The position numbers and the translations under genes are program-made. Below, in pieces: positions 9,324 to 63,100 of a stretch of 64,000 nucleotides of DNA; position 1 is the stretch's first letter, and each line of letters begins with the position of its first letter. The notes under the pieces are model-generated. The model was given only the letters and a program-made list of their open reading frames with translations, made no database searches and was not told where the DNA came from. This stretch comes from Carcharhinus amblyrhynchos (lineage: Eukaryota). The stretch lies in the NCBI GenBank assembly GCA_965287045.1, contig OZ336883.1, positions 30,752,001 through 30,816,000 on the forward strand, read 5' to 3'.

Positions 9324-10122
9324 ATCAACTATTTCTCTCTGCAAAGATTCTACCAGATCTGCTGAGTATTTCCACCATTTTCTGTATTTACTTTAGGCAT
9401 AGTTACTGCACTGGCTGAAACGAACAATCCCATTCTTTATCATTGATTATGCTAACAAAAAAGTAGTTGCTAAAAGTAGAACTTAAAAAAGAATTTTGTT
9501 TTAAATCCTTTATAAACATGTTCGGCTAAATAATTAACACAACAGCGTTAGCGTCATGAGAGGAGAAGACTGCAGCTGTATGATTTCATAGAATTGTCAG
9601 TTATTACAGGTAACTTGTATATCCAGTACACACTGTATATAGTATGAACACAACAATATTTGTTTTATCTGGGGTTTTGAAATTCTACAATTGCGTAGGA
9701 GAACTTAATTGATCTTAATTGAGTTAGATCATATCTTCTAAATAATTCCTTAACATTAGCCCTATCTTTGCACTGCTATAACATTTTTCAAAGTTGTAGC
9801 TACAAATCCAGACATCATCAACTGCCGGGCAATAAAAAAATGGGTCAGCAGCAATGGGCAGTGCAGAATAACCTATCAACTTACCGTCATTTTTTGATGT
9901 AGTTATTTCATAACAACAAATTGCTAGGTGTCTATCTAGAATGAATTTCTATCCAAACCCGGTCTTACAAAAGTATGCATCTGATCGTACTTCACATGAA
10001 TGCACGGATGGTTACGTCCATTTCTGACGTGAACACTTAGCTGAATAAAACTTAAAACAGCATAATTCATGGATACAAAGGTGATAATATTTCTGAAATG
10101 CATATTGAACAAAGTGACTTAC

Positions 10123-12178: not shown

Positions 12179-12289
12179 CTTTAATGATTCCACTTCACTT
12201 TCCAGTTGTTTGGAATAAGTTTCGCTGTGTTCTCGAAGCTTCCTCTCCTTTGATGCTTCAGCGATCGAGTCTTCCAACTGGGCTTCCAG
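12179..12289 (-). CDS. CDC42BPB: MRCK-beta exon 14 (111 nt): [37 protein letters not shown]
   Basis: ttttctag acceptor, GTCAG donor; [11 protein letters not shown] motif; phase 0-0. Confidence 0.95.
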
Positions 12290-12438
12290 CTAGAAAAGGA
12301 AATATTCATTGCAAACCTATGCTTACACCCCATTTCACATTTCCCACCACAAAATTGATGCACAATCCTTTTGGCAGGCATTATAATCGATTACTTACAA
12401 CAATGTTTCAGAAACAGAATCAAAATCATTTTTTAAAC

Positions 12439-12672
12439 CAAATGAGAAAGTGCTGGAAAATCTCAGCAGATCTGGCAGCATCTGTAAGGAGAGAAAAGAG
12501 CTGATGTTTCAAGTCCAGGCGATCCTTTGTGGCACAGCTTTGAAAAACGGTCATCTGCACTCGAAACGTTAGCTCTTTTCTCTCCTTATACATGCTGCCA
12601 GACCTGCTGAGATTTTCCAGCATTTTCTCTTTTGGTTTCAGATTTCAGTATCCGCAGTAATTTGCTTTTATC
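12439..12672. mobile_element. Penelope-derived palindromic non-autonomous element (family A) with hammerhead-like cores
   Basis: About 95-bp inverted arms (tgctggaaaatctcagcagatctggcagcat / atgctgccagacctgctgagattttccagca), asymmetric tail, perfect 12-bp flanking direct repeat cattttttaaac at 12427-12438 and 12673-12684. Confidence 0.8.
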
Positions 12673-13127
12673 CATTTTTTAAACAGCCTTGGATGAAACA
12701 AATAATTAAGAGTTGTTGAGCGGTACTGCTTATTCCACAAATTCTCGTTTGCAGCTTTGGGAGATTATGAAAATGATCTTGGAAGTAAAAAAATCTGAAG
12801 TGGTACAAAAAGGTTCAAATTCTCAACCGATTTAAAAGATTGAAAACAACATAATGAAGAGCTTTATGCTGCATTTTACAATATAATTTAAGCACTCTAG
12901 TTCTATCCTTGGTAATATTACTCACATTCGTAATGTTTTTGCCATTTACCATGTGACAAGATTGCATAATGTCTTAATAAAGTTAAATACAGCTCACTAC
13001 AATTCATATTATGAGTTAAAACTAAGGCAATAAAATGTCACCTTCAATAAGTGGTGAGACCCAAATTGCTAAATATTTAAAACAAGAGTAATATTTTAAT
13101 AAACTTGGATTAAAATCAAAGCAGAGC

Positions 13128-14010
13128 ACGAGAACACAAGATGTAGGAGTAGAACTTAGCCTGCTTTGCCATTCAATATGATCATGGCTGAACTTGGGTT
13201 TCTACTTTATTTTCCACTTTATTTTCCTTTCTGCTCCCCATAATTCACCAAGAGGCCAAAAATCTGTCTTTCACAGCCTTAAATGTTTTCAATGATGGAG
13301 CATCCACAACCCTCTGGATAGAGAATTTGAGTGAAGTAGTTTCTCCTCATCCCAGCCTGAAATAATTGGCTGCTTATCTTGGAACTGCGCTCTCTTCCCC
13401 TGCCTTGTTTTAGGCACACCAACCAGTGGAAACAATCTCTCAGCGTCTCCTCATCAAATCCCCGCAAGAGTTTTGTATTTTCAAAGAGATCTTCTTTCAT
13501 TCTTCTGAATACTAGAGAACATAAGCCCAATTTACTAAGCCTTTCATCATACAACATCATCTTCATCCCAGGCACCAATCGAGTGAACTTTTATGATGTC
13601 GCCTCCAATGCAAGTACACATCCTTATATAACCGAACCTGCACACAGTATGCCAGATATGGTTTCACCAAAATCCTTTACAACTGTAGAAAGGCCCCTTT
13701 ATTCCTGTGCCCCAATTCACTTGCAATAAAAGCCAACATGCCATGTGCCTTCCTAACTGCTAACTTTTTTTGAACATCAACATTTACAAATTTCAAACCT
13801 TTTAAAAAATATTCTGCTTTTCTATTCTTATAAACTAAGTGAACAACTTAACACACTACATTGAAATCCATCTACCATCACGTTGCCCTATTACTTAACC
13901 TATTGCAGCTTCCTCCCCACTGCTCATATTCTCACCTACCTTGATATCATCAGCAACTTTCATACTTGGCTCTCTAATCTCTTCACCCAAGTCATTAATA
14001 TAGAATGTAG
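13128..14010 (-). mobile_element. CR1 LINE 3' portion (continues at about 14590-14655 after the LTR insertion)
   Basis: ORF 13279..13578 (YDERLSKLGLCSLVFRRMKEDL) is CR1 ORF2 C-terminus; CR1 tail at 13128-13190. Confidence 0.88.
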
Positions 14011-26075: not shown

Positions 26076-26369
26076 CTAATAATCTTGATCTTTTAAGAAA
26101 ACTTGTGACTGTTGAAATCTGAATAATAGAAGATAGAAATAAACATATCAAGTGGTACCTGTAAAAAGAAAAGACAGGTTGAAGTTACAAGTGTGCATAT
26201 CTCTTTAGAACTGATGCCTAGCCTTTTGGTTTTCTGTTTTTGGACACATTGGTTTCCAAATCTGATGACGCTTGCAAATCATAAGCACTAACTTGTCTTT
26301 TCCCTTTACAGATGCTAACTGATCTGCTGTGTTTTCATGCTTATCCTGTTATTTAAATCTTAAACTTAC

Positions 26370-33537: not shown

Positions 33538-33597
33538 TTACCAATTTTTGAGGGGACAGGAAAGGGAAACTCGCGCACAAATAATGATCTTGATTAT

Positions 33598-33777
33598 CAA
33601 AGCAAATTACTGCAGACGCGAGAGTCTGAAACAAACACAGAAAATGCTGGTAAATCTCAGCAGGTCTGACAGCATTTGTTAAATGTTGAGTCTGGATCGG
33701 CCAATTGGCTCTATTCTCTCTGCACAGATGCTGTCAGGCCTGCTGAGATTTTCCAGCTTTTTTTTGTTTTCATACTT
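33598..33777. mobile_element. Family A palindromic element, centre deleted
   Basis: Inverted arms aaatctcagcaggtctgacagcat / atgctgtcaggcctgctgagattt; flanking repeat atcttgattat / atgttgattat (33587-33597, 33778-33788). Confidence 0.75.
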
Positions 33778-38214: not shown

Positions 38215-38850
38215 GCTGTGAAACAAAATACTTCCAATGCTGAAAATCTGAAATAAAAGTAAACAAAAATGTTAGAAATAACCCATGGGTCATGCAGCAT
38301 CTTTGGTGAGAGAAATACAGTTAACTTTTTGGGTCAATGAAATTCTGACAAAAGACCATCAACCTGAAATGTTAATTGTGTTTCTCTCTCCATGGATGTT
38401 ACCTGACCTGCTCGAGTACTTCCTACTTCTATTCCAGATTGTGCTGGCCAGTTTTAGTACTGAAGTCAATTAATGATTTAATATGAAATCCAGACATTGT
38501 AGTTCAATAAACAAACATAATTCTAACCTATAAAGTATCCACTGTTAGATTATGCAAAAATTTTCAAAAGCAAAATACCGTGAACGCTGGAAATCCGAGA
38601 GGAAAACAGAAAATGCTGGAAATGCTCAGTAGGACTGGCTCCAACCGTGTAGAGAGAAACAGGGTTAATGTCTCATTCAAACTGATGAAATGTCTTAGTC
38701 CTGAAAAGTTAACTCTGTTAACACTTCAAAATGATTTTATTGGCAGCGAAGTGCTTTGAGACATCTAGTGATCATGAATGTACTATGCAAGTACAAGCTT
38801 TCTTTATACAGATGCTGCTTGGTCTGCTGAGCATTTCCAGTATTTTCTAT
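38215..38850. mobile_element. Two older family A palindromic elements (about 38215-38440 and 38565-38850)
   Basis: gcagcatct..gagagaaa..agttaac arms with cores ttCTGACAA..cctGAAAtgttaa (38343-38376) and aaCTGATGA..cctGAAAagttaac (38680-38713). Confidence 0.6.
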
Positions 38851-49095: not shown

Positions 49096-49631
49096 AAGAA
49101 CATAAGAAATAGGAGCAGGAGTAGGCCATCTAGCCCTTCGAGCCTGCCCCGCCATTCATAAGATCATGGCTGATCTGTCATGGCTCAGTTCCACATTCCC
49201 ACCCTCTCCCCATAACCCTTAATCCCCTCTCTTATCAAAAACCCATCAACCCGCGTCTTAAAAATATTTAGCGAGGCAGCCTCCACCACTTCAACGGGCA
49301 GAGAATTCCAGAGATTCACCACCCTTTGAGTGAAGAAGTTCCTCCTCAACTCCGTTCTAAACCGCCCTCCCTTTATCCTGAGGCTGTGCCCCCTAGTCCT
49401 ACTGTCTTTTTTCAGCGGGAAGAGTCTCTCCACCTCTATCCTATCCATCCCATTAATCATCTTATACGTCTCAATGAGATCTCCCCTCATTCTTCTAAAC
49501 TCTAACGAGTACAAGCCTAGTTTATTCAGCCTCTCCTCATAGCTCAACCCCCTCAACTCCGGTATCAGCCTAGTAAACCTCCTCTGCACTCCCTCCAAGG
49601 CCAAAATATCCTTGTGCAGGTGTGGCGCCCA
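49096..49631 (-). mobile_element. Young 5'-truncated CR1 LINE with intact ORF2 C-terminus
   Basis: ORF 49185..49688 open from WAPHLHKDILALEGVQRRFTRLIP to the natural stop; intact 3' UTR and ttcttatg tail repeats; CpGs retained. Confidence 0.95.
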
Positions 49632-51589
49632 AATCATTTTTGTGAACATTTTTCCTATAATGCTGTTAAATATTATCTTTCTTTGCATCTCAATGGTGTC
49701 TCTTATGACCCTTATCTTTCAAAATCTTTTACAAATTTCTTCCGATTAGTAGGGACATGGCTTTTTATGTTATAAAATAAAAAAGGAAACCATTTACGTA
49801 AATATGCGAGTGAACTGTCAGTTACCAAAATTATTTTCATGCTACTGCCATTATTTGTTTTGGATCCTGTAGTGATATCCAGAAAGTAGTAAATGTTTAT
49901 TTCCAATAGCAGAACCTATCACCTCAAAGGAAAAAACTTAACGTAAGCGAATGTGTTATCACCTGAGGAAATTAACAGAATTTGTTCTCAAGCCTCAATA
50001 ACTAGCATTAAAAGAAATAAATGGCAATTTGGGCTGCCATGTACTGTTTTTCTACAGAACCCCAGGCAATATGCTATGTTATACAGAGTAATACATAATT
50101 GTAGCAGTGCAATAATACATTATGTCCCTCTACGGCTGCAAAGTCTAACTCAGGTTGTCAAATACATTAACCACGAGTCAAGTGTGGCTACTCAGGAATT
50201 CAGGTGTGGCAAACTGCATGCTTGATTAGTTTATTGAAAAACAGGAGGCACCAATGTCAGGCATATGATCTCAATACTCATTTTGCATGGCCCATGCATG
50301 TGCACGTTGCCTTTTTGTAAGATTGTTGGTGAAATAGTCAACACAACAGCAGTGCCCAAACACTTTTGATTGTTTCATGCACTTTACTTCCTTGGTTACT
50401 TACTAATGATCTGCTACAAATGTGCAATAATTTTACCCATATAGCGCCATCATAATTCCAGTGAATTGGCACTCCTTCCAAGGCCAATACACAAGAACAC
50501 AGGAATTAGGAGCAGGAGGCGGCAATCTGACCCCTCAAGCCTGCTCTGCCATTCAATAAGGTCATGGCTGATTGAACTCTGGCAGCAATTCCACTTTTCT
50601 GTCACCCATAACCCTTCTGATCAAAAATCTATTTAACTCAACCTTGGCTACATTCAATGACCTAGCCTCCTCTGGTCTCTAGGGAACAGAGTCCAACAGA
50701 CAAATGACCAGAGAAAATTTCTCCTCCTCTTAGTCTTAAATAGGAGGGAGTATAATTTTAATTGCCCATGACTAAACAGAAAAGTTTTGATTTGCATATT
50801 TGTGTAATCAGTGGTGTATTTCTCCTTTCCCCTCAATTTCTACGTTCATACATGAAAAGTGGGATAAAGAAAATAGCTACAAGGAAAAGATCACAGAGAA
50901 AATATGATTTTTTTCCAAATTAACCCAGATTCAAAGTCCAATGGTGTATTCTTGCAGAGTTGGTAGGCTGAACAGTGATGGTGGATAATTCACATTTCTG
51001 GTGAGATGACTTCCACTATGGGATAGGCATGTAGAGATGGATTAGTCTTGTAAGTGCTGACACAGATGCTCCACTAAAAACAGTGAAGGTGTGAAACCAG
51101 GTATTCAAACCCGGCCAGAGACCTTATTTAGGAACTGCTTCTTGCTAGATGGAAAATGGCTGAACTTTACAGCTTCAGCAAGACAGGGTCCAGCCTCGAG
51201 CATCATGTGACAGGACACCCACTTCTCCATTTTGATTTGGGCAAAGAATATTTATCTGTCGGCATTTATGAAATGGATTGTGTTTCCACCATTAATAATT
51301 TCAAGAGGTTTCAGGATCCTATGCCCTCGTAAACGGGTCGTTTTTGTTGCATTTCTAAGGCTAGGCTGAAGCAAACAGTGTTTGTAAAATTGTCTTGGAA
51401 TTTGGTCTCTGCAGTCAGAGAGCATTAGCGCCTCTTTAGAGATAATGAGTGTCAACTTCTTATTGCTGCAATCTTCCTTTTGTTTGAATCATAGCTTTAA
51501 TCATTTTAAAGCCTTTGCCCTGTTTTTATGATTTTATAAATCAGCCATGATGATATGTTGTATATATTATGAAAGAAAATTTTTAAAAG

Positions 51590-59274: not shown

Positions 59275-59470
59275 ATTAAAGCAAAATCCTGCGGATGCTG
59301 GAGATCTGAAATAAAGACAAAGTACTGAAAAAATTCAGCCACACTGGCAGCATCTGTGGAGAGAGAAACAGAGTTAACGATTCTAGCCCAGTACGATGAC
59401 TCTTCAGCACTACGACTCTTCAGCACTACTGCCAGACCAGCTGCACTTTTCCAGCACTTTCAGTTTTTAT
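59275..59470. mobile_element. Family A palindromic element with an internal 16-bp tandem duplication
   Basis: aaagcaaaatcctgcggatgctggagatctgaaat tail, ctggcagcatctgtggagagagaaacagagttaacg arm; gactcttcagcactac twice (59398-59429). Confidence 0.75.
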
Positions 59471-59819: not shown

Positions 59820-60178
59820 GAATCTATAATCTAATCTCAGGGTTTAAAGCATTTTATGAAGTGCAATGGAAACAGTTTCTCTCCAGCTACTCTATCTACA
59901 CCTCTCATGATTTTGAGTGCATCAAAAGTTCTCTCAAACTTTACTCTAAAACAACCAGGGCTTCTCCACTGACTCTCATAACTGAAGTACCTCATCGCTT
60001 GAGCTATTCCCCCAAATTGTTTCTGCACCCTCGCCAATCCCTTCACATCGTTCCTCAAGTGCAGTACCCAGAATTGGACAAAATACTCCAGTTGAGGCCA
60101 AACTGGTGTTTTCTTAAGGTTCATCACAACTTCCTTCTTTGTTCCTTTTGTCTCTTTATAAACCCAGAACGCCAATAA
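59820..60178 (-). mobile_element. CR1 ORF2 C-terminal fragment
   Basis: ORF 59837..60175: PQLEYFVQFWVLHLRNDVKGLARVQ...KIMRGVDRVAGEKLFPL. Confidence 0.85.
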
Positions 60179-63100
60179 CGATGGTCACGCAGCCAGCAAT
60201 ATTGGAAATTTGCAGCCTTCTTCCTCGAGAGAATTAGAATGGTGTTTTATAAAATGATGAAGGTCCATCAATGAAATTTTTCCTAAAACAAATCTTTTGG
60301 ACTCATCCTCCTCATATGTGCATTTTGACAATTAATATTGCTCTTCTGCTTAACTAAGTACTAAACTTAAATTATTTTTTGCTGCAGCTTTAATTAATTA
60401 GAGTCTTCAAAGGCCAGGATCCCATTGCCAGCAAGACTGTACCCAACATTTCAACTCAGGACCTGGTGCCCTTCCCTGCCCACTATGCGCAGAGGTATCC
60501 TAACAGTGGATCACTGCAGCCCCTAACCCAATGCTGCAGTGAGTTACACAGCTCTTCCATAACATCTTGTGTAAACCACATCTGTGCATCCGTTTGTTGA
60601 CACTTAGTCACATCCTATTCAACGTTAAAAGTCCTCACTACACCCAGCTATATAAAGAAACAAAGCAGATTTTTTTCAATGTTTCAAAGAACAAAGAAAA
60701 TTACAGCACAGGAACAGGCCCTTCGGCCCTCCAAGCCTACACCGATCACGCTGCCTGATTGAACTAAAACCCCCTGCTCTTCCGTGGACTATATCCCTCT
60801 ATTCCCATTCTATTCATGTATTTGTCAAGACTCCCCTTAAAAGTCACTATCGTAATTTCCTTCAGAATTCTAAAATTTAATCTCTTTTGGGAGCAATAGA
60901 TCTTCAAGTTTTGCAATTTTAAGATTTACTGAAGCATGTTAATTAGACACAGACAAAGTAGGTCTGATAATTACAAGCCCGAGTGGCCTGTGTATAAACA
61001 CAGGAATAAAGTAACTAGTTGACTTTGGTATGTGAGCAAATTGAAACTTAAAGGGGGAAAAAATAAAATGTAAGAACAGGATAGACTAATTTCCTTACAC
61101 TTGCTAAGCTAAGGCACCAATTTTATGGATTTACCACTTTTTTAGGGCAACCTGTTTAATTATACAAGAAATTTATAGAAAAATGGAGAATTAATGGATT
61201 GAACTGTTAAGAGGTTCTAATCAAGTTAATTTCTTAATCAAGCTTTGTATGTAAAATAAATGAATTGCAGGCTGGTAGTTCTAAGAAGAATTGTTGAGAT
61301 AAAAATGATTTAACTTGCATAAAAGGTAACCTGTTCCATTCATTAAATTTTTGTCTTGTTGTTCTGTTTTCCCTCCACCCAAATGCTTGTTTTCCTTATC
61401 CTACTTCACTCACTGGATATTTTATTTTCACTTTCTCTCTAATCTTCTTTGCTGCACCTTTTACAGCATGGCTTACTTTCCTTTCATTTTATAAATCCTT
61501 GCCTTTTCCATTTTGAATTCAGCCAAAATTTCTAGTACTACTTCATCAACAGTTATCCTCTAATTGTTCTGTCTCCTCCTTTTGTAACCTCTGTGGCCAA
61601 CCACAAACTTCTGCAAAAAAAAGGCTTTCATCAACTTTAATCAGCTACTTCTTTTAACAACTTTCCCTTTTTATGTGTACAATAAATTCCATTAATACTT
61701 ATTTACCTGACAGTCACTTCCTATACCTTCTACTTTCTCTTTCTTTCTCCCCTCTGCCACATTAGTTTATAGTTATTGCCAAAGCATTAGTTATTCTCAT
61801 GGAAATGGCACTGATCACAGCTTTGGTCAGCAGAAGCCTATAGAGACCTTTCCTGATACAGAATGGGTCCGATTGTATAAGAAATCAGAGCTCTTCCATC
61901 CCAACACCATTTCTCCAATCACATACGTAATTGAATCACCATTACTATACTGTCTAGCCTGTTAACTATAGAAGTACTTCTGTCATTATTACCCTTGCTC
62001 TTTCATCACCTCATGTTTTGGTACAATCCCAATTCTATTTCCAGGATTACAACTTCTGTTGCTTCCCATCACTCTTTTAAACAAGATAACCTGGCAGGCA
62101 ATCTATTGTTTGGAAATCTTAGTGGTATCACTGTAACAGGGATTCCACACTAATTATCCACTTGATAGTTCAACACTCGAGGAAATCTCTGTACTGCCTT
62201 TGTGGATGCTCGCTCACTCTTTTTCTTTGCTAACTGTTGTAATGAGACCAGGTCAAAAGAGGTTTACTAACTTTCACAAGGGAAAAGTGAGTTCATCAAG
62301 GGGAGGGGTGGAGGTGGAAGAGATAAGCTTCTATTTGAAAAAAAAGAACAATCCATCCCTGATAAGGAGTCTTAAATGGGTGCTTGTATTATTTCTGAGG
62401 AGTGGACAGCCCCTTCCTCAGATAACCGGGTTTTCTGGCAGAATGAAGCAAGCAGGCACTTAAGATGAGGCCATGACAATGAGATTCCAATCCTACATAA
62501 TAGAGTGAGCAGTTCTGGGTAGCCTTGAGTGGGCACATCGCCAGCCTAATTGTTAGGGTCACAACCCAAGCTTTATAAAGGTCCATACAATCTTAACTTA
62601 CACAACTGGTTGAGTAGCACTGTAGGAACCAGCCAAGTATAACTAATCACAGCAGCTGTTAATTAAGTAAAATATTACTGGCTACAACCAACCATGAGAC
62701 ATTGCACTAAGTCAGTCAGTAAGTTCTTAACAGCAAACAGAAATCAAATAAATTAAAAGCACTGTGCAGTACAAATTGCAGTACTGTGCCCTAATCTCAT
62801 CTGGTGAAATTAAACTCCACAGTGTTCTTTCGCACTTGTAATCATATCTTGAAAAATGTTTGGATGTATTCTTTCTATACATAGTCGTATACAATTTTAG
62901 ACCATTCAAAGCATTTTGATGAAGCAGTTAGCATTGGTCAACATTTTTAAGTTACACCCGGAAAATATTAAAGTAATCGTGACTCTTTGTGCAGTGACAG
63001 TTTCCTATTACAAGTGATTGAGTACCAATATGGTTGTGTGACAGAATTTCCTGCACACCCGGTGTTTGTGCTGGCATCACATTCTTACTTTCAATCCCTT

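Follow-up and report, generated by a model that had tools for sequence, protein, structure and literature searches.

In the available portions of the reports on endonuclease-bearing (EN+) Penelope-like elements (PLEs), the published layout of an insertion includes an inverted, 5'-truncated copy of the element and a tail at one end only (PMC8557442, PMC3846280). The inverted terminal repeat (pLTR) is shorter than the direct one and stands head-to-head with it, the tail is 30-40 nt long, the junction between the repeats is palindromic, a target-site duplication (TSD) encloses the insertion, and the pLTR contains a TATA box (Arkhipova et al. 2013, PMC3846280; Craig et al. 2021, PMC8557442). The hammerheads of Cercyon of Schistosoma mansoni and other metazoan PLEs have, in the excerpted text, a stem I of 4 bp, an extra nucleotide after A9, the pair G10.1:C11.1 and palindromic positions 15.2-16.2; U3-A8 covariation is given for Schistosoma, with about 1,300 hits, as are motifs paired on opposite strands, and minimal PLE hammerheads are described as weak cleavers (Cervera and De la Pena 2014, PMC4209133). 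Poseidon of Anolis carolinensis (PAc), which carries a hammerhead in its pLTR, cleaves and extends both target strands in vitro, starts reverse transcription at two sites that bracket the tail, and uses uncleaved RNA as its main substrate (Frangieh et al. 2024, PMC11167929). Animal non-LTR retrozymes, as defined in the accessible part of the preprint, are short, non-coding, PLE-derived repeats arranged head-to-tail in tandem, with a type I hammerhead in each unit (bioRxiv 10.64898/2026.07.22.740005).

The window, a stretch of 64,000 nucleotides of Carcharhinus amblyrhynchos DNA, holds a locus that can be compared with each of these systems. Measured against the same portions of the reports, it agrees with EN+ PLE insertions in the arms, tail, junction, TSD and TATA box just described, and differs from them in being reduced to two arms with no ORF between; in addition, junctions in the shark family to which it belongs cluster at the first base of hammerhead stem I. 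The family shares the stem, core and opposite-strand features listed for Cercyon and its relatives. Unlike Cercyon, as far as the excerpted report extends, it is a vertebrate subfamily with thousands of copies, U3:A8 being their master state, and a C3:G8 sister is found in the same genome. With PAc it has in common a pLTR hammerhead, two 3' end classes that match the two tail-bracketing starts and, apparently, the insertion of uncleaved RNA, whereas PAc belongs to the Penelope/Poseidon clade and has C3:G8 and an ATG inside stem II, the shark family having a CX4CxxC linker and a predicted ATG about 35 nt past the tail. The locus is short, non-coding and PLE-derived with a type I hammerhead, as retrozymes are, yet it is a head-to-head pair, and the tandem head-to-tail units that the preprint text describes were not found in it. 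Both the U3-A8 core and the inverted-pLTR architecture are already published. No paper joining 'twin priming' with 'pLTR' was found in the openly accessible literature searched, and on hammerhead ribozymes of Penelope elements in sharks that literature yielded one review (PMC6155905).

The insertion and its two arms

The unit comprises 234 bases, made up of two inverted arms and a one-sided tail, and is enclosed by a direct repeat (12427..12438 and 12673..12684, plus strand) that is perfect over 12 bp in the window sequence. The last 4 nt of the left duplication also match the arm, a microhomology, and the first 2 nt of the right one also match the element's continuation. Family positions are numbered from the central AGCT, whose first base is +1. 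The tail-less arm (12439..12539, minus strand) spans family +1 to about +101/104 and is sense to the host pre-mRNA, while the tailed arm (12536..12672, plus strand) spans +1 to +137 and differs from the family majority sequence at 8 of its 137 positions. The two arms stop at different places, one near +100 and the other at about +136/+137, after a tail of approximately 33-37 nt (12640..12672, plus strand) that is present on the tailed arm only and that in full-length copies continues into the 5' region of the ORF. The arms share a self-complementary AGCT junction (12536..12539), which is at once the 5' strand of stem I and the predicted 5' end of the RNA. Very probably, an endonuclease-bearing Penelope-like retrotransposon left this short and decayed insertion, whose two head-to-head terminal repeats were likely synthesised and joined in a single integration event.

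Between 12435-12528 and 12545-12638 the inverted arms are 86% complementary over 94 nt, and the whole unit folds into one hairpin with a predicted energy of -140 kcal/mol (z -17.4, equalled by 0 of 200 shuffles); the minus strand folds at -134 kcal/mol. These results bear out the first-pass annotation, made from the sequence alone, which had described a TSD-bounded palindromic unit with a one-sided tail and the order of a hammerhead on both strands. Its reading of the right arm as a minimal type I hammerhead (12536..12574, plus strand) also matches the sequence: the core has U3:A8 and an extra A after A9, with G10.1 and one further stem II pair broken. As it had also stated, the core of the left arm (12499..12539, minus strand) is more decayed, a remnant with G at position 3, a 2-nt insertion in the core and changes in stems II and III. 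Stem II of the right arm has a predicted energy of +1.5 kcal/mol, compared with -5.3 kcal/mol for the family (z +1.1), and neither arm of the window copy passes a relaxed hammerhead descriptor. An intact core with both stems is therefore absent from this copy, in agreement with the earlier suggestion that stem II mismatches may have left it inactive.

In another sequencing run, one contig extends from the left flank into the beginning of the arm and aligns over 180 nt with 7 differences and 1 gap. Because this contig spans the boundary, the insertion is shared with the genome of that run and is old enough for this; no empty allele was seen on the left-flank side that the contig covers. By itself the locus is an ordinary dead insertion.

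The parent element and its hammerhead

A DNA search of the 2.9-Gb genome returned 4,611 candidates, and the 40 that were scored, besides the self hit, match at 84-89%. An exact 30-mer from the arm (+54..+83) occurs 5,064 times, so that the genome has at least 5,064 arm copies; since the same 30-mer is present in 8 of 30 loci selected by their core, the count suggests a total of roughly 2 x 10^4 arms. Among 30 loci chosen by core motif alone, 8 extend upstream into a common 3' UTR and 3 of these reach coding sequence for RT and endonuclease. At the opposite end the tail leads into the beginning of the ORF, whose candidate ATG lies about 35 nt beyond the tail. Contiguity with the RT and GIY-YIG ORF at both sides identifies the arm as the pLTR of an autonomous Penelope-like element. 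This places on record the autonomous Penelope sharing the termini for which the first-pass annotation had proposed a search.

The longest open frame recovered among the family copies, P0001, has 557 aa and no intact ORF was recovered among them. The RVT_1 match of P0001 (E 2e-4) falls below the cut-off, and the domain assignment goes by way of P0020, a homologue (41% identity, 97% cover) that passes the cut-offs for both RVT_1 and GIY-YIG and that, over its GIY-YIG region, gives an alignment with a family copy at E 5e-28. A direct Pfam search for GIY-YIG gave no match on 7 decayed family segments. A CX4CxxC motif lies between RT and endonuclease in P0001 and in other copies, and in the available text of PMC8557442 this linker marks the Neptune and Nematis clades of PLEs; by this linker we assign the parent, provisionally, to a Neptune/Nematis-type EN+ PLE. 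The order of RT and C-terminal GIY-YIG in an ORF contiguous with the repeat, the pLTRs on both sides of the ORF unit, the 30-40 nt tail at one insertion end, the variable length of the TSD and the variable 5' truncation are all those of an EN+ PLE. The nearest named homologues of the protein come from sharks and rays. Three ray or skate proteins (P0003, P0035 and P0118), 55-58% identical to the PLE protein, are named as isoforms of host genes (divergent protein kinase domain 1C, chitinase domain-containing 1 and nicotinamide riboside kinase 1); they are either exonised PLE sequence or annotation artefacts. Just 5' of the candidate parent ATG, at about +138 to +168 in the family (L110-L138), there is a branch-point-like motif, a pyrimidine tract and an AG, motifs that, with no donor identified, suggest a possible 5' UTR intron in the parent element.

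The family majority has a stem I of 4 bp, U3-UGA-N-A8-A9, an extra A, a stem II of 5 bp with G10.1:C11.1, GAAA, a palindromic stem III and UC. At the level of the family, this is the Penelope-type minimal type I hammerhead that the first-pass annotation had recognised, in its core order, stem I of 4-5 bp, G10.1:C11.1, extra nucleotide after A9 and palindromic stem III. Both the majority sequence and copy L050 fold stems I and II, with a z of only -1.4 for the 39-mer. Among the fetched loci, which had mostly been retrieved by core patterns, the hammerhead descriptor finds 81 matches, and 645 kb of shuffled sequence give 0. An Rfam covariance search to E 10 found no hammerhead match for the window, for an intact U3:A8 copy or for a C3:G8 sister copy, returning only sub-threshold miRNA-hairpin and other matches. 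The blank is uninformative, because the sister copy, a control with the canonical core, gave no match either; the models miss the minimal form.

U3:A8 is the master state of the whole family. In a sample of arms not selected on the core, 64 include positions 3 and 8, and 60 of these have U3:A8; U3 and A8 also occur together in 93 of the first 100 of 408 core matches, so the co-occurrence that had been predicted from this one copy holds across the family. A sister family with C3:G8 and an identical stem II (409 matches) is present in the genome, consistent with the earlier remark that the C3:G8 pair can covary. With positions 3 and 8 left free, the first 100 of 219 matches to the sister loop, counted by eye, include 56 with C3G8, 17 with U3A8, 15 with C3A8, 3 with U3G8 and 9 others. 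In the pooled listings (n = 200) the numbers are 110 for U3A8, 57 for C3G8, 19 for C3A8, 5 for U3G8 and 9 others (Fisher p 5e-26), an association that reflects one change at the level of a lineage and not many events. C7-A8 is read in 14 of the 15 C3:A8 copies among the sister-loop matches listed, and a CpG route to A8 is plausible.

Other natural hammerheads also have U3-A8, and the accessible text of PMC3088659 states that it is active in vitro. When a type III hammerhead was mutated pairwise, as excerpted, the G:C swap alone rescued the 3/8 pair (PMC9901934); this result and the weak cleavage of minimal PLE hammerheads (PMC4209133) would, by analogy and as far as the consulted portions go, count against activity of the putative U3:A8 ribozyme. 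The U3:A8 and C3:G8 family hammerheads, having the same stem II, are a matched natural pair for asking whether the swap keeps cleavage.

Ends, junctions and the origin of the palindrome

The many insertions of the family make the origin of inverted ends and tails in PLEs countable. Ends were read in an unselected sample of 92 arms, for which presence of the +54..+83 30-mer was the sole criterion (they occupy the first 92 of its 5,064 places, on one contig). The 5' ends fall at +1..+6 in 35 arms, 20 of them exactly at +1; the others lie at -19..0 (11), at -20 or further upstream (20), at +7..+30 (16), at +31..+40 (6) and at +41..+54 (4). A TATA-like box starts at -30 in 8 of the 8 loci with upstream sequence, and +1 is probably the start of transcription of the parent, the RNA 5' end lying 30 nt below the box. 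The 3' ends are bimodal, with 56 arms ending at +87..+124 and 36 at +133..+148.

TSD-like repeats scoring at least 8 flank 38 of 53 head-to-head insertions, compared with 0-1 in 20 shuffled pairings of the flanks, and range in length from 8 to 19 nt with a mode of 13-15. Insertions of 0.2-2.9 kb, including those that bear an ORF, have the same two ends and TSDs; the end rule also holds for the seven whose arms are separated by 1.6-2.6 kb of ORF, and 5 of these have a TSD. In L115, L116, L121 and L129 (~1316-1382 in oriented coordinates) the copy has its start precisely at +1 and extends into the ORF, and what precedes it is an inverted fragment of the tail region only, equivalent to a very short partner cDNA.

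Exactly one arm is tailed in 54 of 59 head-to-head pairs. Two tails occur in the other 5, of which four have a diverged arm (78-83%) that may be a neighbour. In the 37 head-to-head insertions of the unselected sample there is one tail in 29, none in 8 and two in 0, the 8 pairs without a tail counting against a one-tail model. Both arms reach the central AGCT (about +1) in 9 of the 37, the window's insertion being of this type, and in the other 28 at least one arm starts elsewhere. Even among 15 loci with an exact AGCT-centred junction the end of the short arm varies from about +12 to +102. No fixed differences between tailed and tail-less arms were found in 54 pairs; three positions at which the arm classes differ (uncorrected p 0.01-0.04, 91 positions) were set aside because the query itself differs there. 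Common ends and TSDs at lengths of 0.2-2.9 kb, asymmetric junctions and the lack of fixed arm differences indicate that the palindrome was likely built anew at each insertion.

The mechanism that we propose for this is double priming. The protein of the element would nick both target strands, about 12-15 bp apart, and each nick would prime its own cDNA, one from the end of the tail and the other from the tail-less start. Both cDNAs would run to the RNA 5' end, 30 nt below the TATA box, where the self-complementary AGCT would let their 3' ends anneal. Uncleaved RNA would serve as the template. The U3:A8 core is an inheritance from the parent subfamily.

The state of the template can be addressed since AGCT occurs at +1 and again at +36, directly 3' of the predicted cut. 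Searches with one 24-mer each found 65 exact head-to-head junctions at the +1 AGCT and 1 at the cleavage-site AGCT, an excess that indicates uncleaved templates. The ratio agrees with the in vitro finding that uncleaved RNA is the main substrate (PMC11167929); it concerns the template and not cleavage by the predicted ribozyme. Starts in the vicinity of the predicted cleavage site, at +35..+38, account for 5 of the 26 arms that begin at +7..+54 (p 0.06), and some templates may have been cleaved. One tail per insertion, asymmetric junctions and the 65:1 excess fit double priming on uncleaved RNA, and would extend the in vitro Poseidon results to an element of the Neptune/Nematis type.

The arms of one insertion share 27 non-CpG variants, compared with 13.4 ± 3.3 after shuffling (p 0.0005, 54 pairs, a few of which may be chance neighbours). 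This sharing is easier to explain by a single template, fold-back or later gene conversion than by two unrelated RNAs. It is a reason to consider that the inverted arm, of the same PLE origin, arose from one cDNA or an antisense RNA that folded back or primed itself, or from a template switch at the RNA 5' end. Arkhipova et al., in the accessible portion of their paper, proposed self-priming on an antisense template for junction palindromes (PMC3846280), and the 9 near-symmetric insertions, the window's among them, would suit it. The 28 asymmetric junctions do not, the inverted arm fails to mirror the 5' end of the direct arm in long copies (L079, L085, L065), and AGCT permits a loop of 2 nt only; we judge this route improbable.

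Still less credible is the model of the first-pass annotation, a non-autonomous, retrozyme-like palindromic family transcribed and mobilised as a 234-nt unit, with ribozymes working on both strands. At least 30 loci do match the whole unit at 84-89% identity with similar ends, and the 65 exact AGCT-centred junctions could be read in its favour; however, those 30 loci were chosen by their likeness to the query, and in unselected copies arm length and junction vary. Ends and junction are not fixed, only 9 of 37 insertions reach AGCT on both sides, the arms have no diagnostic sites or signature of their own, and the same ends bound ORF insertions of up to 2.9 kb. A transcript of either strand would be one long hairpin that sequesters both cores, and retrozymes are, in the preprint text at hand, head-to-tail repeats (bioRxiv 10.64898/2026.07.22.740005), whereas the arms here are head to head. 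The idea is largely refuted. A MITE or other DNA-transposon derivative with terminal inverted repeats and a chance hammerhead-like motif, to which the long inverted arms and flanking direct repeat might point, is refuted by the contiguity of the arm with an RT and GIY-YIG ORF, and the variable length of the TSD, the tail that keeps the inverted repeats from the very termini and the descriptor matches absent from shuffled sequence leave it a negligible probability; no link to a transposase was seen.

Returning to double priming, a wider proposition can be stated, which we advance tentatively and hold to be somewhat short of an even chance. It is that many natural PLE integration records show double priming in which the cDNA from each nick begins at one of the two RT start sites and stops at the TATA-defined first base of the hammerhead, the self-complementary stem I strand serving as the joint, and that cleaved RNA is almost never the template, yet a compensatory U3:A8 core became fixed in an expanding subfamily, the ribozyme acting at some other step. 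If this is true, the putative ribozyme might, for instance, remove a capped leader of 35 nt or release unit lengths from read-through RNA, and shark genomes would hold tens of thousands of natural records of PLE integration.

Some junction details are recorded here in their own right. U3:A8 makes the RNA 5' end at family +3..+13 nearly self-complementary (a 5-nt inverted repeat around one base), a property that the C3:G8 sister does not have, and junctions with an overlap of 10-11 nt (L020, L027, also L197) appear to use it. In L256 (G000:C1:62789460-62790200) and L251 the arms seem to jump between the stem I copies of AGCT, with deletion of the hammerhead core.

The host gene

The host, identified as an MRCK/CDC42BP kinase gene by KELK (E 5e-26) and DMPK_coil domains and by structure matches to MRCK beta/alpha, lies on the minus strand, and the element sits in one of its introns. 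The next downstream exon (12179..12289, minus strand) lies outside the element, its acceptor at 12290/12289 being 149 nt away, close to the 150 nt estimated earlier. Transcription of the host from the minus strand puts the right-arm core antisense to the pre-mRNA and leaves only the broken left-arm core in sense orientation. The earlier claim that the insertion puts a ribozyme-like motif and a long dsRNA stem into the host pre-mRNA needs correcting to this extent, the better-preserved core being the antisense one. Self-cleavage of the host pre-mRNA is unlikely, because both cores are mutated and paired into the long hairpin; an effect on the host by way of the predicted dsRNA stem is possible.

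In the left arm, at 12482/12481 on the minus strand, a polypyrimidine tract and AG are followed by ATG, 192 nt upstream of the true acceptor. If this cryptic AG were used, the transcript would gain an in-frame stretch that meets a stop after 28 codons; the hairpin would likely mask the site. Five further pLTR-related fragments, more diverged (77-86% identity), lie in the same gene at window positions 33596-33772, 38566-38848, 59275-59467, 9332-9383 and 26296-26335, and three of them are opposite-strand pairs. The host introns also contain decayed C-terminal fragments of a LINE-type RT, putatively of the CR1/L2 type, at 49188-49718, 13282-13590 and 59840-60184 (minus strand).
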